Below, one piece after another: positions 3,727-21,175 of a stretch of DNA of 64,000 nucleotides. Each line of letters opens with the position of its first letter. Position 1 is the stretch's first letter. Position numbers and translations under genes: made by a program. The notes below the pieces were generated by a model. The model was not told the origin of the DNA, searched no databases, and saw only the letters and a list, made by a program, of their open reading frames with translations. Source of the DNA: an uncultured Verrucomicrobiota bacterium (GTDB lineage: Bacteria; Verrucomicrobiota; Kiritimatiellia; CAIKKV01; CAITUY01); NCBI GenBank assembly GCA_964535015.1, contig CAZHRU010000002.1, positions 2,215 to 66,214 on the forward strand, in the 5' to 3' direction.

Positions 3727-5880
3727 TCAACGGTACAACGCCGTCTGGGGACGACTCGTCCATGTGTTGTAGTAGCGCATGGCCAGCCGCCACCATGGCG
3801 ACAGCGCGGACTCCCGGAGGCGCCAGACTTGATGGTGCAGTTCCCCCACGGCTTCGGCATTCATCAGAATGGCCATCTGCTCCCGCCGATCCAGCGATGC
3901 GGGCCCTTTGGCCAGAAGCCGCTCCTGCAACTCCTTCAACCGGTTGGCACGATGCCCGGCCCCCTGCTTCCGCCGGAGTAACGAGCGATGCGACGCATTC
4001 ACGTACGGATCAAGAACCACCTGCATCAACCCGTAATGCGGCACCAACCAGTCCGGCGGCAACAGGTGCCGGCGTATCGCCCGCAGATTCTTAGCCAGAT
4101 GACGAACCACCGACGGCGGGTTGTTTTCAACCGGGATGCTGAACATGCCAACCCGCCTCAACCACCGCCCCACTCCGGTCATGCTTAACACCGCTGAAAG
4201 CGGAATGGACCCCATCAATCCAAACGTCACCGGGCTTAACCACCAGAAAAAAGCCGTGTTGATGCGGAAGGCCAGTAGCGCCCACGCCAACCCCACCAGG
4301 GTGTGCCCAAGGTGGGATTTGACGATCCCCTCCCAGTCCACCCCATCACCGGCATCCCGCGTCTGGGCACCCCACGGCACCTCACGCCCACTCAGGATTT
4401 CCATAACAAAACGGGTATTGAACAGCATCTGCACCGGCGCAAGCAGGGCCGACAAGATGTGCTCAATAACAAACCCGAGCAGGACCCGTGCCCCCCCCCC
4501 AAACGAACGACGTCGCTCCCTGTTCACCAGCGTCAACACCACCGCCAACGCCTTTGGCAACGTCAGCAACCCCAGTGTCACCGTGAACAACAGCAACGCC
4601 AAACGCCCGCCCCCAATGTCGAGGAACGACGAAAACCCCACATCGGAGTCGAACCGCATCGCCGCCCCCGAGGCCCAGTAAAGCCATCCGGCTATGGTCC
4701 CCAGCACCAGGAACGCCAGCCATAGGGGCGAGGCCAGATAGGACAAGATCCCCAACAGCAGGTGCAACCGGTTGATCGGATGGAACCCGCCCGCCGTGAT
4801 CAGCCACGCATGTTGCAGATTACCACGGCACCAGCGCCGGTCACGCCGCGCATGATCAATAAACGTGGGCGGAAGATTCTCATAACTCCCGCCCAGTTCA
4901 TACGCCATCCACACCTCGTAGTTTGCACGGCGCATCAACGCCGCCTCCACATAGTCATGGCTCATGAACCGCGCATTCTCCCCCGCCTCACCCGTCACCA
5001 TCGGCAACCCGCAATGCTCAATGAACGGCGCCACACGGATGATCGCATTGTGCCCCCAGAAATTGCCGCACCCCGCCTGCCAGAAGTTCAGTCCCGCCTG
5101 AAATACCGGACCGTACAATGTCCCGGCAAACTGCATCAACCGCGCAAAAAAGGTCTGCCCCTGGATCGGACTGGGCACCGTCTGAATGATCCCCGCCTGC
5201 GGATTGACTTCCATCATCTGAACCAACCGGACCAGCGTATCCGCATTGATCAGGCTGTCGGCATCCAGAACCACCATGTACCGGTACTTGCGGCCCCACC
5301 GTCGCAAAAAGTCGCTGATATTGCCGCTTTTCCGGTTCAGGGCCACATTGCGCTTCCGGTAAAAGATGCGCCCGAATCCCTTGACCTGCTTGCATAGATC
5401 AATCCATGCCACTTCCTCCTCGATCCATTTGTTGGGATCATTGGAGTCACTAAGAATGAACACGTCGAACCGCCCGATGAACCCGGAACGCACCAGATCC
5501 AGATACATCGTCCGAAGCCCCTCGTAAACACGGCTCACGTCCTCATTGTAAATCGGCACCGCAATCGCCGTCGCCGGAAGATCGTCAACCTTCGGCAGCG
5601 ACTCCGGCACCGTCCGCGACAAACTGAACGGATCACGCCTGCGCAACAGGATCAGGAACCCGCACAACGCCTGCACAAATCCAATCATGACCATGCCGAA
5701 CAGCGGAACGAACAGGACCAGGATCGCTTTCTCAATCCCCGTCATGCCTCCCCGCCACAGAATGTCAGCCATCACCCAGGTCGCCAGGCCCGTCATCACC
5801 ACCACAGTGGTAAAGAAGAAGACCTGACGACGCCAGGATCGGCGTAGCGGACTGATGGGAATGGTTCCAAGGGCACTCAT
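3727..5880 (-). CDS. opgH: Glucans biosynthesis glucosyltransferase H (OpgH/MdoH, GT2, polytopic)
   Basis: GT2 core motifs IAVPIYNED, VLDADSLI, QTVP and RRDRRWCRGNLQH, flanked by multiple TM segments. Start trimmed to ATG 5880 (MSALGTIPISPLRRSWRR..), 4 nt after the stop of the upstream gene. Confidence 0.88.
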   Translation of the reverse strand: MSALGTIPISPLRRSWRRQVFFFTTVVVMTGLATWVMADILWRGGMTGIEKAILVLFVPLFGMVMIGFVQALCGFLILLRRRDPFSLSRTVPESLPKVDDLPATAIAVPIYNEDVSRVYEGLRTMYLDLVRSGFIGRFDVFILSDSNDPNKWIEEEVAWIDLCKQVKGFGRIFYRKRNVALNRKSGNISDFLRRWGRKYRYMVVLDADSLINADTLVRLVQMMEVNPQAGIIQTVPSPIQGQTFFARLMQFAGTLYGPVFQAGLNFWQAGCGNFWGHNAIIRVAPFIEHCGLPMVTGEAGENARFMSHDYVEAALMRRANYEVWMAYELGGSYENLPPTFIDHARRDRRWCRGNLQHAWLITAGGFHPINRLHLLLGILSYLASPLWLAFLVLGTIAGWLYWASGAAMRFDSDVGFSSFLDIGGGRLALLLFTVTLGLLTLPKALAVVLTLVNRERRRSFGGGARVLLGFVIEHILSALLAPVQMLFNTRFVMEILSGREVPWGAQTRDAGDGVDWEGIVKSHLGHTLVGLAWALLAFRINTAFFWWLSPVTFGLMGSIPLSAVLSMTGVGRWLRRVGMFSIPVENNPPSVVRHLAKNLRAIRRHLLPPDWLVPHYGLMQVVLDPYVNASHRSLLRRKQGAGHRANRLKELQERLLAKGPASLDRREQMAILMNAEAVGELHHQVWRLRESALSPWWRLAMRYYNTWTSRPQTALYR

Positions 5881-5884
5881 TTGT

Positions 5885-6484
5885 TTAACGGCGGGTATAC
5901 AGGAACAACGCCACCAACAGGGCGGCAAAGACAAGCCACATAAACAGCGTCTTGATGATGGGGAACCGTTCCAGCGTTTCCATCGCCGACCCGGCCAGTT
6001 CAGGAATCAATCCACGGTCAAGGGGGCGCGGCACCATGCTGCTGACTTCCAGTTCAGGCCCCGTCTTGACCAATCGCGCGTGCAGAGTCTCCGAAAACCC
6101 CGGCGGCGCCTCCCGCGGGTTCAGAAACGCGTTCGGCCAGCGCATGGGCGCATCGCACAAATACAGCGCCAGATACGCCTCATCCATCGTCGCCGGCCGC
6201 CCCAGTTCGGGGCGTTGCAGCAGTTCCGCCATCCAACTGGCGATCATCGCCCGCGTCTCGTCAATCGCCAAGGTCGCCAGATTCTCGGCGTTCCCCGCCT
6301 GCCGTTCCAGCGCCCGCTGAAGAATCACCGCCGCCAGCCTCGCCCGATGGAGCCGGCTCGACACCCGGCAGGCACGAAGGTAGTTCTCAACCTTCTCAAA
6401 CGCCTCATCCCATTCCCCGGCCTTCTCCGGATTCCAGGACGGCAGTGCTATGGAGTCCAGTGGTACGTCCACGTTTCGGTGCAT
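5885..6484 (-). CDS. Hypothetical tail-anchored protein encoded between opgG and opgH
   Basis: 199 aa. The body is helical-looking and soluble, with a single C-terminal hydrophobic segment (IIKTLFMWLVFAALLVALFLYTRR). The start overlaps the opgG 3' end by 37 nt and the stop lies 4 nt before the opgH ATG. Confidence 0.6.
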   Translation of the reverse strand: MHRNVDVPLDSIALPSWNPEKAGEWDEAFEKVENYLRACRVSSRLHRARLAAVILQRALERQAGNAENLATLAIDETRAMIASWMAELLQRPELGRPATMDEAYLALYLCDAPMRWPNAFLNPREAPPGFSETLHARLVKTGPELEVSSMVPRPLDRGLIPELAGSAMETLERFPIIKTLFMWLVFAALLVALFLYTRR

Positions 6485-7986
6485 GGCACTCCATCCTTGC
6501 GCAGTTCCGCGCGCAGTTCAACCGCCGTTGCCGAGTCTTCCGCATACACATCAAACGCAATCCGCCACGTCCGGTTAAATGCATTGTACTCGTCAGACTT
6601 GGCCGACAGGTGCCCGCCGGTAACGCCCACCGATGCCTCCGGTTTCACCGCCCCCTCACCGGGCGGCGTGGGCCACGCAAACTCCAGCACAAATTTCCGG
6701 GCCCGCGGTTGCGGCGGTCCAAGGATAGCCCCCGATTTCATCGACACGACCCTTGCCTTCGGAGGCAAACTGTCGTTTTCGTTATACCAGACAATGTCAT
6801 AGGAGAACTCAGCCCAGTCCCCCGGCCCCAGCGCTTTGGCCGGCTCCCAGAACGCCACGATATTGTCATGGAACTCCGAATCCGTCGGAAGTTCCAGTAA
6901 CCGCACCGCCCCTGCTCCCCAATCCCCAACCGGCTTGATCCACCCTGATGGACGCCGGTGGTACGAACACTCCATATCCTGATAAGAACCAAATGAACGC
7001 TCACGCTGGATAAGACCAAACCCCTTGGGATTCTTGTCCTGGAATGCGCTGAAACGTAACCGGCCGTCGTTCTCCAACGGACGCCACAACCATTCGTTAT
7101 TCCCGTTGGCAATCAGCAGACCGTCGGAATCGTGGACCTCGGGCCGGAAGTCATCAAACCGCCTGGCATTGTTCTTGCCGAACCAATACATGCTGGTGAG
7201 CGGCGCAATTCCATAGTTGATCACATTGGTCCTGGCAAAAACCGCCACCCGTGTGTGCATAACGGTCTCCGCGCCCGGAACAATCACGAACGATGCCGCC
7301 CCCGCCACACTCGGACCATCGAATAGCCCGATCACCCTGATCTCCTTCCCGTCCTGACCGGGGCGATATACCCAGAAATCCTCAAACCGTGGAAATTCCT
7401 CAGGCACATTCACTCCACAGTTCACCGCCACCGCCCGCGAGGACAGCCCGTAAATCAGACCCTTTGGCAACGCCCGGAAATAACTCGCCCCCTGGAAAAC
7501 AATCAGTTCATCAAGATACTCGGTAGTGTTCAGCGGGTAATGAATCCTGAACCCCGAGAATGTCAACCCGCGTACGTCCATCCAACTGAGTTTAACCAGC
7601 GGCCCGTAGTCGAACAGCGACCGGTCGAACCCGAAATCCTGCACGTTCTCGCCATCCACCAAATGCATGTAGATCTGGTCGGTCTGACCACCGGCCGGAT
7701 GAAAGAACTGGAGTTGGAAGGGAAGACGCTCTCGCCGCCACACCGCCTCGCGTGTGTCGTAACGGATATCGCGCATCTGGTCATAGGAGAGTTCCCTCAG
7801 ACGCGCCGACAACGGCCGCCGCATATCCTTGTAGGGGGCCGTGGCCATATCACGGGCCATCCCCTTGATACGCTCAAAATCAGGCGCACGCTCCCGCTCC
7901 GCCGATGACACATTCCCGGGGTCTACGAACAAAAAAGCGCCGATGACAAAAACCAATCCCTGCGTCAAAGCTCTATTCATAGACAT
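6448..7986 (-). CDS. opgG: Periplasmic glucan biosynthesis protein OpgG/MdoG family
   Basis: 512 aa with a Sec-type signal (MSMNRALTQGLVFVIGAFLFV). Segments LSYDQMRDIRY, FQLQFFHPAG and GASYFRA are MdoG-like. It is adjacent to opgH. Confidence 0.88.
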   Translation of the reverse strand: MSMNRALTQGLVFVIGAFLFVDPGNVSSAERERAPDFERIKGMARDMATAPYKDMRRPLSARLRELSYDQMRDIRYDTREAVWRRERLPFQLQFFHPAGGQTDQIYMHLVDGENVQDFGFDRSLFDYGPLVKLSWMDVRGLTFSGFRIHYPLNTTEYLDELIVFQGASYFRALPKGLIYGLSSRAVAVNCGVNVPEEFPRFEDFWVYRPGQDGKEIRVIGLFDGPSVAGAASFVIVPGAETVMHTRVAVFARTNVINYGIAPLTSMYWFGKNNARRFDDFRPEVHDSDGLLIANGNNEWLWRPLENDGRLRFSAFQDKNPKGFGLIQRERSFGSYQDMECSYHRRPSGWIKPVGDWGAGAVRLLELPTDSEFHDNIVAFWEPAKALGPGDWAEFSYDIVWYNENDSLPPKARVVSMKSGAILGPPQPRARKFVLEFAWPTPPGEGAVKPEASVGVTGGHLSAKSDEYNAFNRTWRIAFDVYAEDSATAVELRAELRKDGVPCTETWTYHWTP

Positions 7987-8095: not shown

Positions 8096-10180
8096 TCAAT
8101 CATGAACCGTGTAGGGTACGATGCACAACTCCCGCAACATGAGATCAATACCTTTCTCCGGGTCCGGACTCCCGATCAGCACCACCTCCCGGATTCCCGT
8201 CAGCCCCGGCGTCGCAGGCAGCGGAATTCTCAACTCCGCTTCCGCCGCCCCCGTGTTCTCAAACCGAAATGCAATCAGATTGGCCACACGCCGACTACCG
8301 CTCTCCCGGTCCTCAAACGCCAGTGTCGCCCCCACCGCCGAACCGTTATTGCAGTACCGGATCCGCAACTCACCGTCCGATGGCGATACCCCGCCCAACC
8401 GTCCGGGAAACGTCCAGGTAATCGCGCCTTTCTTCCCTGGGGCGCCCCACAACCGATACGCACCTTTCACGGCCTGCCCCTGGATACCGCCGCCACCCGG
8501 CGACCAAACCACCGCCTTTGCCTCCACCCCCAACAGGTCCACCCGCTCACCCCACGGATACACCCGCGCCCAATCCCCCGCAAACCCCCGCTCATCAAGA
8601 TAGCGACTCATCGCCACCGACCCCCGCCCAATCCCCCCAAGGATCAATGACATCACATGCGCCGCCGTCTGACACTCCACCCGTTCCCCGGTATCCACCC
8701 TGACCCCCTCCCACGGGCCGTGCCTCGTAAACAATCCCGAAATACCCGACCACTGCTCCCCGAGAAACTGCTCGACCTCTTCCGGTAGAATCGAATACGC
8801 CACCCCCACTGTGTACAACGACGGGGCATTGGTAACTCGTGGCTTCGGGTCAACCGCCAGTTCCGGAACCCCTGCCCGCCCCGTATACTCGATACCATTG
8901 CCGGTGTAGGACTCCGTCAGGAACCCGGGTAACCGGTGTTGACGCGAATAATCAAGATTGATCCGCACCGCGTTCTCCAGGACCGCACGCCACCCGGGAA
9001 CCGTTAACTCCCTCATAAACAACGACAATCCAAACGCCTGGAATGCCGACCCCTCCCATGGCGCCAGGGTGAAAACATGCCGGCCTCCCTCCGTAATCCT
9101 GCCTTTGATCCAGAACCCGAGGTTGCGCAGTGCGTCCAAAGGCATCCCATAACGGATCACCACAAACTGGGTGGGCCCCCGGAACTCGTTGACCAGATAA
9201 TCCGAATACCCCGCCTGCCACTCGCCGCCATCAACCGCCCACCCCACAAACCGCCGGTCAGACGCGTTCCATCCAAAACGGAACAGTCCACGCTTCGCAT
9301 CGTACAGGTATTCATAACCCGGCCGCTGGGCTTCAATGAAGAACTCCAACTTTTCGCGGATTCGCCCTGCCGTCGCGGTGTCCCGCACCCCCGGATCCAT
9401 TAGCGCGCCCTGCGTCTTTGCAACGGACGCCGCCAAGTTCGCGTTATCCCCATAGATGATCTGCAACACCCGCCGGTCAAGAATCGCCAAAATCCTGGCC
9501 CGCATTTCCGCCCTGTCATACACCGCCAGTTCACCGGTGAATCCACCCTCCCCGTAATCCCCCTCCCGAACAATGTCCGCCCCCTCGTCGCCCTGCCACG
9601 CCTTCAGCCATCCGCGCTGGCTCAGGGCCCGCCACACCGCTTCGCCTTCCACAGGCCCGAATGCCTCACGGAACTCGCTCTTGCTTGCCACCGAGGCCAG
9701 CGGGGCTTCCCTACCCTTGGCCCCAAACCCCATGAAGTTGCACAACAAACCACGATCACTTAACTGTGGGTCACGTTGATCCGCCAGCAGACTATCCGTC
9801 AGGTGCTCCAGCCGCACCAGTGCTTCCGCCCGCGACACATACGGCGAATCCGCGTACCCGCCCGCCACTTGCGCAAGCAATTCCATCCATGCCCCGATCG
9901 CCGTCAACTGCGTGAATCCGCGTAACCGTAATCCGGTCTTCGGATCGTCATTCCACCCCTCGCGCGGATACCCTGATTTCGGCTCAATCAATCCATGCTC
10001 GGGACGGAGATACTCCATCGCATTGGCCAGCAACCGCGTCATATGGGTATGGCGCGCATTCACCGTCGAAAAAACACACCGCTTGCTACGCGTCTCCCCG
10101 GCCGGCGCACGACCATGACTGCCCACGCTCACACACCCGGCGACCACGACCGCAATCCCCACCGCCATCAACCCTGTCAT
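8096..10180 (-). CDS. Lipoprotein with a six-hairpin (alpha/alpha)6 glycosidase-like body and a C-terminal beta-sandwich-like domain
   Basis: Start trimmed to ATG 10180, giving MTGLMAVGIAVVVAGC (lipobox VAGC) 7 nt after the stop of the GH94 gene. Segments GYPREGWNDDPKTGLRLRGFTQLTAIGAWMELLA and APWEGSAFQAFGLSLFM resemble the glucoamylase-like/DUF3131/GH144-type superfamily. This is recollection, not a search. Confidence 0.7.
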   Translation of the reverse strand: MTGLMAVGIAVVVAGCVSVGSHGRAPAGETRSKRCVFSTVNARHTHMTRLLANAMEYLRPEHGLIEPKSGYPREGWNDDPKTGLRLRGFTQLTAIGAWMELLAQVAGGYADSPYVSRAEALVRLEHLTDSLLADQRDPQLSDRGLLCNFMGFGAKGREAPLASVASKSEFREAFGPVEGEAVWRALSQRGWLKAWQGDEGADIVREGDYGEGGFTGELAVYDRAEMRARILAILDRRVLQIIYGDNANLAASVAKTQGALMDPGVRDTATAGRIREKLEFFIEAQRPGYEYLYDAKRGLFRFGWNASDRRFVGWAVDGGEWQAGYSDYLVNEFRGPTQFVVIRYGMPLDALRNLGFWIKGRITEGGRHVFTLAPWEGSAFQAFGLSLFMRELTVPGWRAVLENAVRINLDYSRQHRLPGFLTESYTGNGIEYTGRAGVPELAVDPKPRVTNAPSLYTVGVAYSILPEEVEQFLGEQWSGISGLFTRHGPWEGVRVDTGERVECQTAAHVMSLILGGIGRGSVAMSRYLDERGFAGDWARVYPWGERVDLLGVEAKAVVWSPGGGGIQGQAVKGAYRLWGAPGKKGAITWTFPGRLGGVSPSDGELRIRYCNNGSAVGATLAFEDRESGSRRVANLIAFRFENTGAAEAELRIPLPATPGLTGIREVVLIGSPDPEKGIDLMLRELCIVPYTVHD

Positions 10181-10187
10181 CCACCCG

Positions 10188-13100
10188 TCACATCTCATTA
10201 CTCCACTCCCTCCGCACTGCCACCACCCGCAGATCACCGCGCGGCTCCGCCAGATCATCCGGCAGGCGGACCTTGTTGTTCTCCAACCGCGCCCCCACAA
10301 CACCTTCCAGCGCCTGTCGCACCATCCAGGCCGCCGCCCCCGTATAACCGTTCCAGATCATCCGCCCGGGTTCAACCTCCGTCAGGTAATCCGCCGCCTG
10401 CTTGTTCGGCTGCCCTCCATAGACATCAATCCGGTCCTCCCCCGTATGATCCAATGGCGAGATCTTCCGCCATAACCGGATCGCCGCCGCGCGATAGGTT
10501 GCCGCCCCCTCTCCGTCCCCCGCCGCCCGTCGCGCCTCCGCCAACAACCGCGCCGCCCCCACCAACCATTGCACCCCGTGACTGTACATCCCGTTCTCGC
10601 GCACGCCTTCCGGATACTGACTGACCCGCCCAAAGTGCGGACGGGTCCCTGCGTGAATCGCCGGCCATCCGAGCAACACCACCAACTCCCGCTCCAGAAT
10701 ACCCAGCGCGGTATCAAATCCCCGGCGGGCACGGTCAGCATCCGCTCCCGCCATCACCGCCCAGGCGACCGTCAACGCATCCACCTCCCACGCCCCCCCT
10801 CCCGCCACCCCAATCTCCGTCCCGTCATCATGGATGGCCCGCAAATACCGATCCCCACGCCACGTCGCCTCCAGCGCCTGCTTCAACCCCTCCAACCACC
10901 GCCGGTACTCCGCCGCCACGCCCGCCCCGCGCCGTCGTTCAATATGCGGCATGAACTCGCGCAACACGTACGCCAGGAAGAATCCCAGCCACACACTCTC
11001 CCCGCGCCCCTCACTGCCAATCTCATCAAAACTGTCATTCCAATCGCCCGTGCCGATCAGCGGCAACCCATGCCGCCCCATCCGCCGCCGCCGCACCAGA
11101 TCCAACGCCCTCATCACGTGATCAAACACCGTCTCGACCACCGGCGACCGCAACGGGAATAACCCCATCCCCCCCTTGCCTTCCGGCAACGGCAACAACG
11201 GCGTTTCCGTGTCCAGATAGGGAACCCGTTCATCGAGAATCGTCTCGTCCCCCGCCATCCGCACATACTCCGCCACCCCCCACCCCAACCACAGCAGGTT
11301 GTCGGACGCATGCGATCTCGACGCCAACCCGGTCTTGCCATTCATCACAAAGAACCAGTGCACCGTGTCGCCCTGGATGAACTGCTGACCCGCGTGGAGC
11401 AGCAATTGCCGCCGGGCCAACCGCGGATCCGCCCAGATCAGGTTGACCGCATCCTGCAGTTGATCCCGATACCCGAATGCGCCACTGGCCTGGTAAAACC
11501 CTTTCCGCGCCCACAAACGCTCCGCCAGCGCCTGGTACTTGAGCCAGTACAAAAGATGATCGAACCCGCGATCCGTTGTATCAACCGTCACCGTCCGGCT
11601 ATACCCGTTCCACCACCGACGCGTGGCGTCCAATTGCGCATCGGCATGATCGGACCGCGCATACACCGACATCCATCGCTCCGCCTCGGCACTCGAGTCC
11701 GCTTGCCCCAGTATCACGACCACCGTGCGCACCTCCCCCGGCGGCACTTCCAGTCCCACCCGTAACCCCGCCACCGGCCGATCATCGCCATCGTCCCCAC
11801 TCATCGCCCCCTCGACACCCTCAACCCACCTCGGATGCGCCACACTCCGTCCGCCACCAAAGAACTCGCCCCGCCGCATCACCACCGCATCCGGCGCCGG
11901 ATTCATCGCCGCGAACGCGGGCCCGCTCCGGAATGTGTTACGCGGATTCTCAAAAAGCACCCCATCCCCATCCGCCGACAACCACCGCCGCAACACACCC
12001 GCATGTTCCGGACGGTTGGCCAGCACCATCTCGAAATACGCCGCGCATTGGAAATGCCGTGCCCGCCCGCCCTCGTTCCGCACTCTCAGCCGGTAGACGC
12101 CCAACGGCTCGTCCGGCGGCACAAACACCGTCAGCTCCGTGGCAAGCGTTCCCTGCCGCATGTGGAATACCGCGGAACCGTCCACACGAAACTCTGTCTC
12201 GTATCGCGCCCCGCGTTCGCGCAGCGGCTCCCATGTCGGCGAGTACCACGCCCTTTCATCCTGATCGAATAGATACAGGGCCTCGCCCGGCAGTTCGCGC
12301 GTAACCACATCCGCCCAGTCCGGCGTCAACCGGTTCTGCTGCGAATTGCCATTCGCCGAGGTGTGCAATCCGCGCTGGGTCACCGCCATGACGTGCCCCA
12401 TGGCATTCGCCATGGTGTGATCAAATGCACGCGGCGTGAAAGGCGTCAGCACCCGCAGAACCCGCCCCCCATCCTCATATCGCGTATACGGTCCCGTCAC
12501 GCCCCCGGGACGCTCACCATGACCCAGCCGCACCGCAACGGCACCGCACGTTGCCGCCGGAAAGGGTGTCCCGCACCCGGTTCCATCCCGCCACCGCCGC
12601 ACCTCCGCCTCGGCCTCAGCCATGGACCCCGCACATCCCACCCGCAACCGCACCGTCTCCTCCGCACCCGGCGCCACCTCAACCCGCAACGCCATGCACC
12701 CGATCGCGTCCAGCAACGGACAGGGCCCCACGCTTTCCGGGGCACGCCACCGGTTCTCGCGCACTGCCTCTGGCGCCCACACCGTCCCCGCCCTCCCGAT
12801 AAACTCAACCCGGGCCATCTGAATCCCTTCCGGCTTCCTGTCCGCCGCCAGAAATCCAACCTGGTGCGTCTGTCGGTGTAACGCCAGAACCGCATCCATC
12901 TCCGACCGGTACGACACCTCGGGGAACAACCGGTTGTACTGCGTGTGATTGCGGTCGGCCTCCGCACTGTTGAGTACCCATTCCAGATACGGAATCACCC
13001 GCAGGGACCTGCCCAGCACCCCGGGATTGCGTACTGTGATCACCCACGACTCCACCGCCCGGTCCTCGTCCGGCAATTCAATCCGGATGACCACCTCCAG

Positions 13101-16100
13101 TCCCTGCACTTCATGCCGCATCGTCAGCGCCTGCTCATCGCCCGACATCGCCGGCAACGTCCCAACCTCACCGGGATAATTCCCCGCCAGCGGCCAGCAG
13201 CTCCATGGGCCGGATGCGCCCTCCTGCCGTTCCGCCAGGAACAACGCGCGTCCCGCCGGATCACGCCCATCATAGGAACGCCGATGCACATCGAATCCCC
13301 GTTCCAGGTACTCGGCCCGCATTCCTCCGTCCCGGGCCAGCGTGAAGGAATAGACATCATTAACCAGTTTCAACGATGCGGGCCGCCCGGCGCGCCGCCT
13401 CAACACCCGCCCGCGCCACACGCCTGCCACAACCGCCACAGCAGCCACCACCCCCCCCGCTTCCAACCCCAGGACCACGCCCGACTGTTGCCAGACCTGC
13501 TCCACCCAGGACACCCCCCCCAACTTGATGGCCTGGGATTGCGCCCAGACTCGATCCCAAACGGCACCTGCCGGAATGTAGAACGGCAAGAGTAACGGCG
13601 CCCATGTCGTGAACCGCTTGACCCCCTCAGGGAAACACCGCGACGTCGCATCCGCCCCAAGGAACCGCGCCACCCTGGCATCCAATCGTTCCATCCCGAT
13701 GAAACTCAGGTTCACCAGCGTCGCCACCCGCAGCCCCATGTGGTCAAGCCAGATCAGCACACGGAAAGCGTCGTACGCCAGCACCCACATGAAGACCGTC
13801 ACACTCCACGCCTCAAACCCCTCGCGGCCAAGCCACAGACTCTGACCAATGCAACACAGGGTGCGAATACCCCCATCCTGATTATACCAGGTCGGCACCG
13901 GCATCTGACGGAGGAAGGTGAAGATGATCGGCGCCATCCACAACCCCCATCGCAACACGAAGATCGTCCCTTCCGCCAACTCCGTGACCCCGTCCCGCGT
14001 GAACAACCTCCGCAACGGTGCCATCTCCCGCTGGAACACCGCCATCAAGGCCGACCGGTTGATCGCGAACAACCATGCCGCCACGCCCCACGAAATCACC
14101 CCCGCCAACGCTTCATTCCAGAGCAGGCGCGCGCCGCCCGTGTAGTGCCCCAGATCCAGGAACCCCCACCGGCTTAACAACGGGTACACCTCGTACGGCT
14201 TCGCGGCCGTCCCAAACCCCAGATACACCGCCAGTTTCCCGGTAATCACCGGCGTCTGCGCCGCATCCAGATAGAAACCAAGGGCCGCCCCCACCAACCC
14301 GCCCAGCATGGCCTTGACCGCGTAGAGCCGCCACCCGCCCACAACACCCCGCCCGGCCCCCCCCAGGACCGCGTCACGCAGGAAACTGATTCCCGCATAC
14401 GCCGCCACCCCCGCCGCAAACCCCCACCCCGCCCGCACCGGCATCGCCCACGTGATAAACTCGTGCGACCACCCCCACGCCGCCATGACTCCAACCACGG
14501 CCCCTCGCCACACCAGCGAATACCGCCGATAGTTCCCCGCCAGACGCCGCACAAAGGATGGACTTCCGTCGAAACTCTCTATCAACGTTTTCGCGAACGG
14601 GAAAACCACGCCTCCAGCCACCGCCCATGTCACCAGCGGGGCCGCCGCTACAGACTGCTTCCACCACTCAGACCCGAGCACCAGACCACCCGCCTGCAAC
14701 AGTCCCATCACCCAACCGCCAAACCACATTCCCTTGCTCGCCCCCGTCCGCGCATACCCCGTAAGTTCAAGCCGCCCATGATGGGCACCCCCGCGCACCG
14801 CATCCAGCATCAGACCCGTCAGCAGATACGCTTCCGCCCACAACGCCGCCTGCGAAAGCACGGTGGCGATTATCGCCACCGGCACACGCCACAACCCCGG
14901 CACATTCCATCCCCCGGATCCTCCGTCAGCCACCCATGGCGATAGCACCACCGCCACCGCCACCAACGGCAATACCCACAGATCAACACCGCGCGCCTTC
15001 ACGACTTTCCAGGACCGGAGGCAAACCCAACACACCAGCAGGTTGACCCCCGCCAGCACCACAATCCTCCCCAACGCCAACCCGAGGGGCCCCGACCCCA
15101 CCCGTAACATCAATTCCCGGTTCGGCAACGCCAGCAACAATCCGAAAAGAAAAGGTATCGCCACCAGCCGAAGACTTGCGGAAACGCTTAACGAACGCCC
15201 AGCCACCCCCAGTTTCCGAACCGTGCCCGCCAGGTAGATCACCCAGAACGTAACCGCGCCAAGACGGCTGATCTTCGCCAGATCCACCCCTTGCTCCGCC
15301 GCTGTCCAGATCGGCACGTCACTGGCCGCCGTCGCCAGCACGCCCGAAACCAGGGCATGGCACAACGTCTCGCCTGCCGTCGGAAACCGCCCGGCCCGCA
15401 CCCTTGTGAGTATCCCGGCAACCAGCACCCCTGACAACATCACCACCAACGGGGTAAACGCCGACTGCCCCACCAGGGTCGTCCCGTCACTGACGATTCC
15501 CATCACCCCGCCGATTCCCGCCACAACCGCCAACCCAACCCCCAACGCCCACCCAACCCGGCACGGCATCCCGGCCCCGGTCTTTCGTCTCGCTAACAAG
15601 GCCGCCACTCCGGCCGCCAACAACGCCACCAGCCCCATCGCCACCCACCGCCCCCATCCCCCCGCCAACACCGCATACCACACAGGCCACCCGACAAATT
15701 CCGCCTGCACCCGAAGCACGCCGGATACCGGGGCCCCTCCTCCGGAATGCTGAAGGGCCAATACCCCTTCCTTCCACTCCCCGATCCGATTCCAATCCAA
15801 AATCACTTCACCCTGCCGCCGACCAGCCCGTAACACCAGCGGCACCGATTGAACCCCAACCGAACCTTTGATTTCCAATGTCGCCAGAATCGGGAGTTCC
15901 GCGCCAGATTCCAGAGTCAAGTGATAGCGCAGGACATGCGCGCCTTTTGCAGGTGAATCAACCCTCTCCGCATTCGCCCATACCCCGGCCCCGCCACCCG
16001 GCGGTATCATGAAGCGAAACTGCCAGACCCCACCTTCCCCTTGGTTCAATGAAGCCTGCCCGCCCTTCATGTCAAACGTCCCCTGCCCCCCCGCCCCACG

Positions 16101-16184
16101 AAGAAAACTATCCGCCTGGCAAACAGAACCAGTCAACACTCCCAAAGCAATAATCAGGACAAACACTCTTCCCATCCAATTCAC
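10188..16184 (-). CDS. Giant polytopic membrane protein with a C-terminal GH94 (cellobiose/beta-1,2-glucan phosphorylase, Cgs C-terminal-like) region
   Basis: 1998 aa. Signal peptide (MGRVFVLIIALGVLTGSVCQADS), a ~140-aa extracytoplasmic domain, then residues ~166-925 almost entirely hydrophobic helices. From ~938 there is a GH94-like region with GYRDQLQD (nt 11451..11468), GDTVHWF, GTGDWND (nt 11034..11048) and ENGMYSHGVQW. The start is GTG 16184 or ATG 16175. Confidence 0.85.
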   Translation of the reverse strand: MNWMGRVFVLIIALGVLTGSVCQADSFLRGAGGQGTFDMKGGQASLNQGEGGVWQFRFMIPPGGGAGVWANAERVDSPAKGAHVLRYHLTLESGAELPILATLEIKGSVGVQSVPLVLRAGRRQGEVILDWNRIGEWKEGVLALQHSGGGAPVSGVLRVQAEFVGWPVWYAVLAGGWGRWVAMGLVALLAAGVAALLARRKTGAGMPCRVGWALGVGLAVVAGIGGVMGIVSDGTTLVGQSAFTPLVVMLSGVLVAGILTRVRAGRFPTAGETLCHALVSGVLATAASDVPIWTAAEQGVDLAKISRLGAVTFWVIYLAGTVRKLGVAGRSLSVSASLRLVAIPFLFGLLLALPNRELMLRVGSGPLGLALGRIVVLAGVNLLVCWVCLRSWKVVKARGVDLWVLPLVAVAVVLSPWVADGGSGGWNVPGLWRVPVAIIATVLSQAALWAEAYLLTGLMLDAVRGGAHHGRLELTGYARTGASKGMWFGGWVMGLLQAGGLVLGSEWWKQSVAAAPLVTWAVAGGVVFPFAKTLIESFDGSPSFVRRLAGNYRRYSLVWRGAVVGVMAAWGWSHEFITWAMPVRAGWGFAAGVAAYAGISFLRDAVLGGAGRGVVGGWRLYAVKAMLGGLVGAALGFYLDAAQTPVITGKLAVYLGFGTAAKPYEVYPLLSRWGFLDLGHYTGGARLLWNEALAGVISWGVAAWLFAINRSALMAVFQREMAPLRRLFTRDGVTELAEGTIFVLRWGLWMAPIIFTFLRQMPVPTWYNQDGGIRTLCCIGQSLWLGREGFEAWSVTVFMWVLAYDAFRVLIWLDHMGLRVATLVNLSFIGMERLDARVARFLGADATSRCFPEGVKRFTTWAPLLLPFYIPAGAVWDRVWAQSQAIKLGGVSWVEQVWQQSGVVLGLEAGGVVAAVAVVAGVWRGRVLRRRAGRPASLKLVNDVYSFTLARDGGMRAEYLERGFDVHRRSYDGRDPAGRALFLAERQEGASGPWSCWPLAGNYPGEVGTLPAMSGDEQALTMRHEVQGLEVVIRIELPDEDRAVESWVITVRNPGVLGRSLRVIPYLEWVLNSAEADRNHTQYNRLFPEVSYRSEMDAVLALHRQTHQVGFLAADRKPEGIQMARVEFIGRAGTVWAPEAVRENRWRAPESVGPCPLLDAIGCMALRVEVAPGAEETVRLRVGCAGSMAEAEAEVRRWRDGTGCGTPFPAATCGAVAVRLGHGERPGGVTGPYTRYEDGGRVLRVLTPFTPRAFDHTMANAMGHVMAVTQRGLHTSANGNSQQNRLTPDWADVVTRELPGEALYLFDQDERAWYSPTWEPLRERGARYETEFRVDGSAVFHMRQGTLATELTVFVPPDEPLGVYRLRVRNEGGRARHFQCAAYFEMVLANRPEHAGVLRRWLSADGDGVLFENPRNTFRSGPAFAAMNPAPDAVVMRRGEFFGGGRSVAHPRWVEGVEGAMSGDDGDDRPVAGLRVGLEVPPGEVRTVVVILGQADSSAEAERWMSVYARSDHADAQLDATRRWWNGYSRTVTVDTTDRGFDHLLYWLKYQALAERLWARKGFYQASGAFGYRDQLQDAVNLIWADPRLARRQLLLHAGQQFIQGDTVHWFFVMNGKTGLASRSHASDNLLWLGWGVAEYVRMAGDETILDERVPYLDTETPLLPLPEGKGGMGLFPLRSPVVETVFDHVMRALDLVRRRRMGRHGLPLIGTGDWNDSFDEIGSEGRGESVWLGFFLAYVLREFMPHIERRRGAGVAAEYRRWLEGLKQALEATWRGDRYLRAIHDDGTEIGVAGGGAWEVDALTVAWAVMAGADADRARRGFDTALGILERELVVLLGWPAIHAGTRPHFGRVSQYPEGVRENGMYSHGVQWLVGAARLLAEARRAAGDGEGAATYRAAAIRLWRKISPLDHTGEDRIDVYGGQPNKQAADYLTEVEPGRMIWNGYTGAAAWMVRQALEGVVGARLENNKVRLPDDLAEPRGDLRVVAVRREWSNEM

Positions 16185-19184: not shown

Positions 19185-20393
19185 TCACCCTCTGCCCCCC
19201 TCCACTTTCCACTCCGACGGCAAATAGCACACCCCCTCAAACCGCTTGTCCGAATCCACGCCGATCGCAAACGCATGATCAAGCCGGTGATAGTTCGACC
19301 GGTGATCCGCCGAATGCACCGAGAATGAAAACAAATATGTCCCCGCCGCCAGGTCCAGCACCGGCAACCGTAACACCACCGACCCCGCCCCGCTTAACGC
19401 CGGAATCAACATCCCTGCAATCTGGGTATTGCTCCCATGCACCAGCCGCCCTTGTTCATCCGACACACTGAACCCGAATACCGACGGACCCACCGGCATC
19501 TTCGCCTCATACTTCACCCGCACATTCAACGCCTTGCCGCTCCCGAAACTCCGGCAGTCCTTCCCCTGGTCATCAAAAAACTCCGCCCCCGTCAGCACAA
19601 CCTCCCGCGTCCCCCATTCCCGCCGTAACTCCCCGCCCGCCTGCCCGCGTGAAAACGTTTCATACTGCCCAATCACCGCGCCAGGGGCCCCATGCCCCTT
19701 GATCTGACCGTGATCAAGAAACAGGATCGTGTCGCTGACCGATTGGATCGTATTCAGGTCGTGCGAGATGATCAGCATGGTCTTGCCCATTTCGCGGAAC
19801 TGCTCCATCCGCTTCAGACACTTCCGCTGGAAGGCCGCGTCGCCCACCGCCAGCACCTCGTCCACCAGCAGAATGTCCGGGTCCACCTCCACCGCCACCG
19901 CAAACCCGAGCCGCACATACATCCCCGACGAATAGTGCTTCACCGGCTCATCCAGGAACGGCCCGATGTCCGCGAACGCGACAATCGCGTCGAATCGCTG
20001 TTTCATCTGCTCCCGCGAAAGCCCCATGATCGCCCCGGCCAGATATACATTCTCCCGGCCCGTCAGGTCCGGATGAAATCCCGCCCCCAATTCCAGCAAC
20101 GAGGATATCGTCCCCGATGTCGTGATCCGCCCCTCGGAGGGACTCATCGTCCCGGCAAGCAACGCCAACAGCGTACTCTTGCCCGCCCCGTTGGCCCCGA
20201 TGATCCCCAGCGTGGAGCCCCGACGGACCTCAAAATCAATACCCTTCAACGCCCACAACTCGCGCGTCCCCCGCCCGCCCTTCCGCAACAGGTCCATCAC
20301 CACGGACTTCAGCGTCCGGGTGGCCGAATGCCGCAACCGGAACCGCTTGCTTACTCCCTGCACCTTGATGGCCACATTGTCCGTCATCATCAT
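19185..20393 (-). CDS. wzt: Polysaccharide ABC exporter ATP-binding protein (Wzt/TagH-like) with a C-terminal glycan-binding-type domain
   Basis: Start trimmed to ATG 20393 (MMMTDNVAIKVQGVSKRF), adjacent to the permease stop. Walker A GANGAGKST, signature YSSGMYVRLGFA, Walker B ILLVDEVL. A ~150-aa beta-rich C-terminal extension resembles Wzt_C. Confidence 0.88.
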   Translation of the reverse strand: MMMTDNVAIKVQGVSKRFRLRHSATRTLKSVVMDLLRKGGRGTRELWALKGIDFEVRRGSTLGIIGANGAGKSTLLALLAGTMSPSEGRITTSGTISSLLELGAGFHPDLTGRENVYLAGAIMGLSREQMKQRFDAIVAFADIGPFLDEPVKHYSSGMYVRLGFAVAVEVDPDILLVDEVLAVGDAAFQRKCLKRMEQFREMGKTMLIISHDLNTIQSVSDTILFLDHGQIKGHGAPGAVIGQYETFSRGQAGGELRREWGTREVVLTGAEFFDDQGKDCRSFGSGKALNVRVKYEAKMPVGPSVFGFSVSDEQGRLVHGSNTQIAGMLIPALSGAGSVVLRLPVLDLAAGTYLFSFSVHSADHRSNYHRLDHAFAIGVDSDKRFEGVCYLPSEWKVEGGRG

Positions 20394-20395
20394 CC

Positions 20396-21175
20396 TCACA
20401 ACTCGTCCGCAAACCCCTTTTGCAACCCTTGAAAAACAACCACCCCAGCCCCGCACACCAACCACGACACCAGCAACGACGGCCCCCAAAGCGCCACCGA
20501 CGGCAACGCCTCGCCCATCAACGCCGCGCGGTAGAGCGCCAGCAACCCTGTCATCGGATTGAGATAGAACAACTGGTGAATCACCGGGTTGCTGAACTTC
20601 TGGGTCACCATCTCGGGACTGTAGATCACCGGCGTCAGGAAGAACCACGCCATGGTGAACACACCCACCAGGTGCTGCACGTCACGGAAGAACACATTCA
20701 CCGAGGACAGCGCCAGACTCACCCCCGTGCATAACGCCACCTGGGTAACCATCGCCAGCGGCAACCATGCCAGCAATCCGAACGGCACCCCCACCATCTT
20801 GAGATAGACCACCACAATGACCAGCGACAACGCAAAGTTCACAAAATTCGCCAGCACCATGGACAGCGGCAACAGCACCCGCGGAAACGCCGCCTTCTTG
20901 ACCAGGTTCGAATTCCCCAGGATGGCGTTGACGGAATCCCCGAGACTCATCGCGAGATACTGCCAGACAAAAATACCGGTCACCAGCAATGGCAGTGACA
21001 TGGAGAACCGCATGATCCCAAGGAAAACGGCGTAAATCACAATCAGGAACACCGGCCCAAGCAAGGTCCATAGGAACCCCAGCACCGACTCCTTGTATCG
21101 GATCTTGATGTTCCGGACCACCAGCATGGCCAGCAGTTCCCGACGATTCACAATATCGCTAAGCAGTTTCAACAT
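20396..21175 (-). CDS. wzm: ABC-2 type polysaccharide exporter permease (Wzm/TagG-like)
   Basis: 259 aa with about 6 TM segments. N-terminal RELLAMLVVRNIKIRYKESVLGFLW is typical of ABC-2 permeases. It lies directly upstream of the ATPase gene. Confidence 0.85.
   Translation of the reverse strand: MLKLLSDIVNRRELLAMLVVRNIKIRYKESVLGFLWTLLGPVFLIVIYAVFLGIMRFSMSLPLLVTGIFVWQYLAMSLGDSVNAILGNSNLVKKAAFPRVLLPLSMVLANFVNFALSLVIVVVYLKMVGVPFGLLAWLPLAMVTQVALCTGVSLALSSVNVFFRDVQHLVGVFTMAWFFLTPVIYSPEMVTQKFSNPVIHQLFYLNPMTGLLALYRAALMGEALPSVALWGPSLLVSWLVCGAGVVVFQGLQKGFADEL

Follow-up and report, generated by a model that had tools for sequence, protein, structure and literature searches.

To our knowledge, glycoside phosphorylases are viewed as soluble proteins of the cytoplasm, with one membrane-integrated exception, Cgs, the synthase of cyclic beta-1,2-glucan, in which a cytoplasmic GH94 module shares a single inner-membrane chain with an N-terminal domain (NTD), a GT84 glycosyltransferase, a cyclase (PF10091) and six transmembrane helices. 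In Cgs, chain length is determined by the GH94 domain, which has a scaffolding function as well (PMC10901819). The SOGP phosphorylases of GH94 (Listeria innocua Lin1839 and the Lachnoclostridium phytofermentans enzyme, PDB 5h3z) are soluble, carry an extra N-terminal sandwich domain and are encoded beside beta-1,2-glucanases and sugar importers. A third comparison, in layout only, is with BcsA-BcsB and OpgH, where cytoplasmic catalysis at the non-reducing end of a chain is combined with a multi-helix domain and a periplasmic jelly-roll. Here we analyze a 64,000-nucleotide stretch of DNA from an uncultured Verrucomicrobiota bacterium of the class Kiritimatiellia (contig CAZHRU010000002.1, assembly GCA_964535015.1), hereafter the window, in which one minus-strand gene encodes four parts: a signal peptide, a periplasmic beta-sandwich resembling a carbohydrate-binding module (CBM), a membrane block of about 19 helices, and a GH94 module of Cgs type (GP1-GP2-GP3). 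It is followed by the gene of a lipoprotein from the SGL clan of GH144, GH162, GH189 and GH192-194 enzymes, which contains the cyclase of Cgs-type enzymes and the GH192 glucanases. The GH94 half of the large protein is a new member of a known family, while the whole is a variant of Cgs-type beta-1,2-glucan machinery with an unprecedented architecture.

The open reading frame (ORF) that encodes the membrane-GH94 protein comprises 1,998 codons from a GTG start at 16184 (Table 1). An identical protein deposited at NCBI (P0001, 1,995 aa) begins at ATG 16175, three codons further in, so that ORF numbering equals P0001 numbering plus 3; the ATG gives a more conventional signal peptide (MGRVFVL...) than the mechanically chosen GTG. 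That the ORF is not a chance reading frame follows from the existence of full-length homologues at 37-75% identity and from an exhaustive profile search in which 680 cluster representatives at 50% identity matched the N-terminal profile, 304 of them at E < 1e-30. The order of parts proposed in a first-pass annotation of this DNA, an N-terminal soluble domain followed by a membrane block and a GH94 domain, is borne out by Pfam and by AlphaFold models. The motifs that it quoted are all present and begin where it had placed them, the ends of GYRDQLQD and GTGDWND having been put a few bases short; GDTVHWF falls at aa 1605-1611, ENGMYSHGVQW at aa 1863-1873, and the stretch LRWGLWMAPIIFTFLRQMPVPTWYNQDGGIRT at aa 744-775 of the ORF.

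Pfam recognizes the GH94_b-supersand domain (PF06165) in two stretches at 205.9 bits (cut-off 23; E 9e-61) and the catalytic Glyco_hydro_94 domain (PF17167) over aa 1524-1964 at 194.8 bits (cut-off 27; E 3e-57), and with both models above their curated thresholds the module belongs to CAZy family GH94. Its closest match in the PDB is Agrobacterium Cgs (8rf9/8rf0, residues 2067-2764) at E 1e-111 and ~36% identity, followed by cellobiose phosphorylases at E ~1e-36 and, weakly, by the SOGP structure 5h3z at E 0.007. The relationship extends upstream of the Pfam domains, since hhalign pairs aa 940-1211 with the GP1 domain of Cgs (alignment columns 1564-1835) at a probability of 97% and E 4e-11, so that the C-terminal half is homologous to Cgs over ~1,000 residues. 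Only ~50 residues separate the end of GP1 (~1211) from the start of GP2 (1266), and the Rossmann-like RFL insert of Cgs is therefore absent. The Asp, Trp and Asp of GDWND, the His of YSHG, and the motifs YTG and QxAD are invariant among 35 family members wherever the sequence is complete. ENGxYSHG, YTG and QxAD may be the phosphate-binding His/Thr/Gln set known from cellobiose and chitobiose phosphorylase structures. In the PDB alignment the catalytic acid of Cgs, D2528, falls in GTGDWND and D2393 in FGYRDQLQD (residue roles from PMC10901819); both active-site aspartates, the loss of which would have undermined the first-pass view, are retained. The module thus looks active and catalytically intact as far as conserved residues can indicate, and the invariance of its motifs in complete members argues that catalysis is under selection, in contrast to Cgs, whose catalytic Asp is dispensable for growth (PMC10901819).

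The region preceding the GH94 module is, on the other hand, unlike anything in Cgs. Neither the membrane block nor aa 1-935 as a whole has a Pfam match even at E <= 10, NCBIfam returns nothing for the whole protein or for its N-terminal 935 aa, and a profile of 12 N-terminal sequences compared with all PDB sequences gave two chance matches at E 0.6. Aligned by hhalign with a full-length alignment of ten Cgs sequences, the N-terminal 935 aa gave a probability of 0.06%, and a degenerate GT84, GH189 or Cgs transmembrane region was rejected on this basis. The first-pass annotation had seen no glycosyltransferase in the membrane block, and indeed neither a glycosyltransferase of GT84/GT2 type, with its D, D, D and RW motifs, nor a GH189-type cyclase domain emerges there from Pfam, NCBIfam or hhalign. 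These comparisons also dispose of the automatic label under which the protein would simply be Cgs. Several members carry the name 'cyclic beta-1,2-glucan synthetase' from the Joint Genome Institute (JGI), and the last 1,060 aa of the protein share homology with Cgs's C-terminal half; but true Cgs proteins carry Pfam GT2 and PF10091 domains, both missing here, and have six transmembrane helices rather than ~19 and a cytoplasmic NTD (PMC10901819) in place of a periplasmic N-terminal domain. Because the architecture is kept in hundreds of genomes it is not a truncation, and identity with Cgs, refuted by the Pfam and hhalign results, can scarcely be entertained.

When the membrane block was remodelled alone (residues 166-935) with a 35-sequence alignment, AlphaFold placed ~19 membrane-length helices over residues ~166-930 with a mean pLDDT of 87 and a pTM of 0.85. 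The comparison with GT-C enzymes and MATE/MOP-type flippases proposed in the first-pass annotation, extended to other transporters, found no relative in Pfam, in the profile search of PDB sequences or in the predicted fold. Foldseek comparison of this model with the PDB gave a best E of 0.04 at a TM-score of 0.12, which is noise, although Foldseek is weak on all-helical membrane folds and a very distant kinship is possible. Membrane pyrophosphatase, Nav/Cav and ABC matches on the list have TM-scores of ~0.1 and none is credible; GT-C enzymes are absent from it, and WzxE and a MATE transporter stand at E 1.5-3.2 with TM-scores of 0.08-0.12. Nor was internal duplication or the inverted-repeat symmetry of transporters evident when quarters and halves of the block were compared by hhalign (all probabilities <0.5%). 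With its 770 residues, a confident model, no family in Pfam and no neighbour in the PDB, the membrane domain constitutes a new sequence family.

The positive-inside rule is satisfied across the family, with a lysine-plus-arginine value of 15.9 for short loops predicted to be cytoplasmic versus 3.7 for those predicted to be periplasmic, and the sequence RGRVLRRRAGR directly follows the last membrane helix. This bias and the basic stretch indicate an N-terminus outside and a C-terminus inside, residues 769-898 being the least certain stretch of the topology, and therefore a periplasmic beta-sandwich and, as in Cgs, a cytoplasmic GH94 module. Apart from the GH94 module the block is the best-conserved part of the protein, with dozens of invariant residues. 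Invariant motifs (P0001 numbering, which also applies to residues of the block cited below) include ESFDGS in a cytoplasmic loop at ~533-538, YLDxxQ at the periplasmic end of TM14 (635-640), RWGLWMxP in TM16 (742-749), WYNQDG in a periplasmic loop (763-768), DHMGLRVATLVN within a helix (811-822) and the periplasmic PEGxKRFxTWxPLLxPFYxP (849-868). Motifs that combine aromatic with polar residues and occur at both faces as well as within the bilayer are what a carbohydrate path might be expected to show. The description of the block as 'transporter-sized' in the first-pass annotation is an argument from size, to which the invariant motifs on both faces lend some weight, and translocation of glucan by the block is a proposal.

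The distribution of conserved residues can also be read without transport. The block might act at the periplasmic face as a glucan-modifying enzyme or lipid-linked transferase, or might sense periplasmic glucan or membrane tension and regulate the phosphorylase accordingly. Invariant D637, D767, D811-H812, E850 and R854 lie at periplasmic helix ends and loops, MscS-type channel genes, kinases or two-component systems neighbour several loci, and a fold without known relatives is compatible with any function. The invariant motifs are, however, scattered over both faces and the bilayer core instead of forming one site, and Pfam, PDB sequences and Foldseek yielded no match to GT-C, acyltransferase, phosphoglycerol or phosphoethanolamine transferase, or sensor families; we consider a non-transport role rather improbable.

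At the periplasmic end of the protein, residues ~20-162 are modelled as a beta-sandwich in the AlphaFold prediction of the 935-aa N-terminal portion (pLDDT 77), and Foldseek matches to that model are confined to this domain. Its neighbours are CBM11 (6r31; E 2e-4, target TM-score 0.53), CBM16, CBM86 and CBM22. The N-terminal domain, whose nature the first-pass annotation overlooked, is thus CBM-like in its predicted fold. Cgs has no equivalent. The domain is missing from a ~1,830-aa subtype of the family and repeated in the representative P0128; extrapolating from P0128, we infer that the extra length of the long Omnitrophota and Elusimicrobiota ORFs consists of repeated N-terminal sandwich units.

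The most conserved partner of the membrane-GH94 gene is the lipoprotein gene immediately downstream, which went unnoticed in the first-pass annotation. Its ATG, behind the Shine-Dalgarno sequence GGAGGGAG, overlaps the stop of the upstream gene by 14 nt, and the two are translationally coupled. The lipoprotein has no Pfam or NCBIfam match. As a single sequence it nevertheless matches GH192 EeSGL1 (8xuj) at E 6e-7 and GH189 TiCGS-Tg (8wy1) at E 0.016, values that become 1.6e-8 and 2e-3 with a profile of the 18-member lipoprotein family. In hand-counted alignments the invariant D252 and E339 correspond to the general base D149 and general acid E221 of EeSGL1, and E339 and the invariant E430 to the catalytic glutamates E1356 and E1442 of TiCGS (residue roles from PMC12102758 and PMC11842490). 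This correspondence points to an SGL-clan enzyme with a complete catalytic set that could be either a glucanase or a transglycosylase. Unlike EeSGL1 and TiCGS-Tg the protein, of ~700 aa, has a lipobox and an extra C-terminal region of ~150 aa; identity is too low for placement in the known families, and it probably represents a further group of the clan, one that would retain both inverting-type and GH189-type catalytic residues.

The pairing is conserved beyond the window. We fetched 83 loci in all, designated by L numbers, of which 61 had at least 2.5 kb of downstream sequence and were informative; in 28 of these a full-length homologue of the lipoprotein, at 37-57% identity, is encoded downstream in the same orientation, immediately adjacent in 16. 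Loci that lack it often have a GH144-type PF10091 gene directly downstream, in at least seven cases and at 17-184 bp (L010, L040, L044, L051, L053, L055 and L080). In the metagenome-assembled genome AM-2014_bin-1020 the two genes form a single in-frame ORF of 2,332 aa (L082:6932-13930), with a hydrophobic helix, KSSPRKRWLSIVLATAAAAGLFVL, preceded by KSSPRKR, between the end of GH94 and the SGL domain. This helix would provide the extra membrane crossing that the proposed topology requires. A sequencing error is possible, and the arrangement is either a Rosetta-stone fusion or the result of a lost stop codon.

Two independent lineages place the membrane-GH94 gene in catabolic company. A string of ~22 kb is conserved around it in the Omnitrophota loci L010, L053 and L080 and runs from a solute-binding protein (SBP), a soluble 790-aa GH94 enzyme, a response regulator, a histidine kinase, a GH144+CBM30 protein and a TPR lipoprotein to the membrane-GH94 gene, and on to a GH144/DUF3131 gene, two ABC permeases, a 260-aa protein and a ROK protein; it looks like a beta-1,2-glucan utilization locus, in a phylum of which few members have been cultured. 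In cultured Lentisphaera marina IMCC 11369 (L052:6059-16586) an SOGP-type GH94 gene (1,137 aa) directly precedes a protein that has the membrane block and GP1 only (1,264 aa), lacking a catalytic domain, and is followed by an SGL lipoprotein and a GH144/PF10091 gene, with genes for an MscS-like channel and Ser/Thr kinases in the neighbourhood and one for an MFS_2 symporter upstream of the SOGP-type gene. Here the membrane block and the catalytic phosphorylase are naturally separated into two proteins; a similar truncated form occurs in L044 (Victivallales). The L052 SOGP neighbour also serves as a positive control, since Pfam SOGP_N, SOGP_2nd and SOGP_4th are all detected in it and none in the membrane-GH94 protein, which is otherwise distinguished from the soluble SOGP enzymes by being Cgs-like and membrane-integrated but probably catalyses the same reaction, the phosphorolytic shortening of beta-1,2-glucan at its non-reducing end. 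Both lineages point to uptake and breakdown.

The reading we favour, tentatively and at somewhat less than even confidence, is that the membrane-GH94 protein and the lipoprotein form a trans-envelope module for retrieval and phosphorolysis of beta-1,2-glucan. The lipoprotein would cut or linearize periplasmic beta-1,2-glucan, the beta-sandwich would hold the chain, the membrane domain would hand its non-reducing end to the cytoplasmic face, and the GH94 module would remove glucose units as glucose-1-phosphate. Periplasmic or external beta-1,2-glucan could in this way be retrieved and recycled, with phosphorolysis acting as a ratchet. The substrate in this host would most likely be its own osmoregulated periplasmic glucan (OPG), made by OpgG and OpgH encoded downstream, and the role one of turnover or homeostasis. 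This interpretation draws on the catalytic conservation of the phosphorylase, on the endo-acting clan of its partner, on the catabolic company in two lineages, and on a membrane domain whose size and conservation go far beyond the needs of an anchor. The direction, import with breakdown, would also be the energetically expected one, because the high ratio of phosphate to glucose-1-phosphate in the cytoplasm favours phosphorolysis. More specifically, the block might be a polysaccharide conduit of a new kind, in a protein that acts as a 'reverse synthase' and threads periplasmic beta-1,2-glucan inward by processive phosphorolysis without ATP or an ion gradient, a proposal that is somewhat less likely than not. 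In layout it would resemble BcsA-BcsB and OpgH run in the opposite direction, with a phosphorylase in place of GT2 and a membrane block that has no sequence or fold similarity to theirs.

Several observations weigh against retrieval. Neither a structural neighbour nor a homologue with an assigned function came to light for the membrane block, whose conduction of glucan is a conjecture; the beta-1,2 specificity of the GH94 module is presumed from similarity and gene context. No lipoprotein homologue lies nearby in 33 of the 61 informative loci. The clearest catabolic loci already possess an importer, of ABC or MFS_2 type, and import of oligosaccharides needs no such protein. The lipoprotein keeps both GH189-type glutamates and could be a transglycosylase or cyclase, and an operon with the biosynthetic opgG and opgH fits synthesis or length control equally well.

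The last point concerns the window itself, where the membrane-GH94 gene, the lipoprotein gene, opgG and opgH follow one another in a single minus-strand cluster. The downstream OpgH noted in the first-pass annotation is confirmed 4.25 kb away by the NCBIfam MdoH equivalog NF003958 (817.9 bits; cut-off 419), and both the operon, with its genes for the SGL-clan lipoprotein, OpgG and OpgH, and conserved synteny support the proposed link to a beta-1,2-glucan that another enzyme makes. All the contexts are tied to beta-1,2-glucan, two of them clearly catabolic and that of the window connected with OPG synthesis. Both this system and Cgs include an SGL-clan enzyme with the GH189 catalytic glutamates, which is a cytoplasmic domain in Cgs and a separate periplasmic lipoprotein here; the synthase, where one is nearby, is the separately encoded GT2 protein OpgH. 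The cluster can accordingly be seen as the functions of Cgs distributed in trans, OpgH taking the part of GT84, the lipoprotein that of the GH189 cyclase and the membrane-GH94 protein that of GH94 length control, with a membrane block that would serve as no conduit and would only dock the phosphorylase to OpgH so that it trims the nascent non-reducing end at the cytoplasmic face. The Cgs-type GH94 module, GP1 included, accords with this, as do the GH189 glutamates of the lipoprotein, the length-setting and scaffolding functions of GH94 in Cgs (PMC10901819), and the presence of opgG and/or opgH next to the gene in three further loci (L039, L063 and L068). Yet among the 83 fetched loci, the relatives of the window included, OpgH adjoins the gene in only 3 and OpgG in 4, whereas SGL-clan enzymes are the partners conserved best, and a number of loci have a catabolic look. 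A block of 770 residues with ~19 helices and dozens of invariant polar and aromatic residues far exceeds a docking anchor, and OpgH is thought to translocate its product during synthesis, leaving little cytoplasmic chain to trim (PMC11842490). We judge length control in trans to be unlikely, though it deserves consideration.

The same hardware could in principle run outward, as a glycosyltransferase-independent synthase and exporter in which the beta-sandwich guides the growing chain and the GH189-like lipoprotein cuts or cyclizes it. GH94 reactions are reversible in vitro, the periplasmic jelly-roll recalls the periplasmic jelly-roll carbohydrate-binding domains of BcsB, and growth of the non-reducing end in the cytoplasm with exit through the membrane is the geometry of processive synthases. 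The conserved two-gene module contains no glycosyltransferase, one locus (L003) adjoins rmlABCD genes, whose products consume glucose-1-phosphate, and the lipoprotein has the GH189 nucleophile and acid/base positions that TiCGS uses for cyclization (PMC11842490). Against this, the co-located SBP, ABC, ROK, SOGP and MFS_2 genes indicate uptake and breakdown, and a true synthase, OpgH, is already present in the window. Cytoplasmic phosphate also greatly exceeds glucose-1-phosphate, making net synthesis by a phosphorylase unfavourable in vivo, and we know of no precedent for phosphorylase-based net synthesis of a structural or periplasmic glucan. Outward synthesis is in our estimation decidedly improbable, and retrieval continues to be our preferred account of the module.

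Table 1. Positions and supporting evidence for the genes, domains and motifs discussed (window coordinates unless a locus number is given; aa in ORF numbering).
Feature	Position	Strand	Evidence
Whole gene, inner-membrane GH94 protein	10188..16184	-	ORF and identical database protein
Signal peptide MGRVFVLIIALGVLTGSVCQA, cleavage predicted after CQA	16113..16175	-	Read from sequence; AlphaFold (AF2) models a helix, then beta-sandwich
Periplasmic CBM-like beta-sandwich (predicted), aa ~25-165	15690..16112	-	AF2 model and Foldseek
Polytopic membrane block, ~19 transmembrane helices, N-out/C-in (predicted), aa ~169-933	13386..15680	-	AF2 model, positive-inside rule
Most conserved membrane-block stretch, RWGLWMxP (TM16) and periplasmic loop WYNQDG	13860..13955	-	Invariant in 35 sequences
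GP1, first GH94 supersandwich, aa 940-1211	12552..13367	-	hhalign vs Cgs alignment
GP2, GH94 supersandwich, aa 1266-1493	11706..12389	-	Pfam PF06165, E 9e-61
GP3, GH94 (alpha/alpha)6 catalytic domain, aa 1524-1964	10293..11615	-	Pfam PF17167, E 3e-57; PDB 8rf9
GYRDQLQD, active-site Asp aligned with Cgs D2393, aa 1571-1578	11451-11474	-	Alignment; PMC10901819
GTGDWND, catalytic acid Asp aligned with Cgs D2528, aa 1711-1717	11034-11054	-	Alignment; PMC10901819
SGL-clan lipoprotein gene, 701 aa, lipobox VVAGC	8096..10201	-	PDB matches, synteny, fusion
opgG (MdoG), GH186-type periplasmic glucan biosynthesis protein	6448..7986	-	Pfam PF04349, E 2e-167
opgH (MdoH), GT2 beta-1,2-glucan synthase/translocase	3727..5934	-	NCBIfam NF003958, Pfam GT2
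MscS-cNMP channel genes	L005:8652-9974; L006:1052-2365; L007:8596-9912	Same as membrane-GH94 gene	

Other features of the cluster and its relatives are less directly connected with these readings. The TTG listed as the start of opgH lies some 510 nt beyond opgG (5934-6448), and a separate promoter or a more upstream start is conceivable for opgH; on the plus strand, a 315-aa ORF at 5855-6802 that overlaps opgG is probably spurious. When the operon was scanned for promoters and terminators, the results were no different from those for shuffled sequence. In the Kiritimatiellia-like loci L005-L007, an MscS-type channel with a C-terminal cyclic nucleotide monophosphate (cNMP)-binding domain ends 27-65 bp upstream of the membrane-GH94 gene on the same strand, which hints at a link to osmotic stress. 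Sulfatase genes (PF00884) lie next to the gene in L001 (8551-9978), L002 (8517-9986) and about seven other loci, by chance or perhaps because the glucans are substituted. A sulfatase had been considered as an OpgB-like link when it appeared in the first three loci, but with only ~9 of 83 overall, and with PVC-group (Planctomycetes-Verrucomicrobia-Chlamydiae) genomes rich in sulfatases, the connection is unproven. The second-largest cluster of neighbours, at one point taken for sulfatase, is in fact PF10091/GH144, and the downstream gene of L001, with 1,001 aa, bears no relationship to the lipoprotein of the window. Upstream of the membrane-GH94 gene in the window, at a distance of 3 kb, a Wzt (ABC ATPase with a C-terminal glycan-binding domain) and Wzm (ABC-2 permease) pair on the minus strand (19185-21175) is an ABC-dependent exporter of O-antigen or another glycan with no evident link to it. 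GC skew is negative in every 2-kb bin of the window (1-64000; -0.05 to -0.37), and the minus strand carries most large ORFs of the first 23 kb; the entire window appears to belong to a single replichore.

That the family is a widespread one and no singular oddity was missed in the first-pass annotation. A scan of GTDB with one genome per species found relatives in at least 551 species genomes from Verrucomicrobiota, Kiritimatiellia, Lentisphaerota, Planctomycetota, Omnitrophota, Elusimicrobiota, Chlamydiota, some Desulfobulbales and a few others, among them the cultured Lentisphaera marina and Victivallis vadensis (Lentisphaerota) and Desulfopila sp. IMCC35006 (Desulfobulbales). Complete members have 1,700-2,250 aa and fall into two subtypes, one of ~2,000 aa with the N-terminal sandwich and the ~1,830-aa form without it, and versions from Omnitrophota and Elusimicrobiota reach 2,400-2,680 aa. 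When the block's conserved core was used in a word-indexed search for homologues, no new architectures emerged and mostly fragments of 250-700 aa came back; many of these are encoded on very long contigs in ENA, of up to 1.1 Mb, and represent either stand-alone core proteins or gene calls broken up by frameshifts in long-read assemblies. The earlier thought that the protein might prove a common, already characterized member of the NdvB type holds for its commonness and fails on the other two counts. A literature search for this architecture turned up papers on Cgs, SGL and SOGP only, and no description of the family. Members are annotated at source as 'cyclic beta-1,2-glucan synthetase', 'glycosyl transferase family 36' or 'hypothetical', and the first two names are mislabels.

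In sum, the family would be a second case of a membrane-integrated GH94 phosphorylase, unrelated to Cgs in architecture, and is spread over at least 551 species genomes of several phyla that are hard to cultivate. It bears on two questions: how periplasmic beta-1,2-glucans, both OPGs and cyclic glucans, are removed or recycled, and how long glucans are taken up by bacteria that have no TonB/Sus-type systems. It is common enough to matter and experimentally tractable, and a few defined constructs would make both questions testable. If retrieval is correct, the module would constitute a dedicated route for OPG and cyclic-glucan turnover in PVC-group bacteria, Omnitrophota and others; the same hardware run in reverse would be a glucan synthase independent of nucleotide sugars. 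In either direction, a glycoside phosphorylase coupled to transport would be without precedent.

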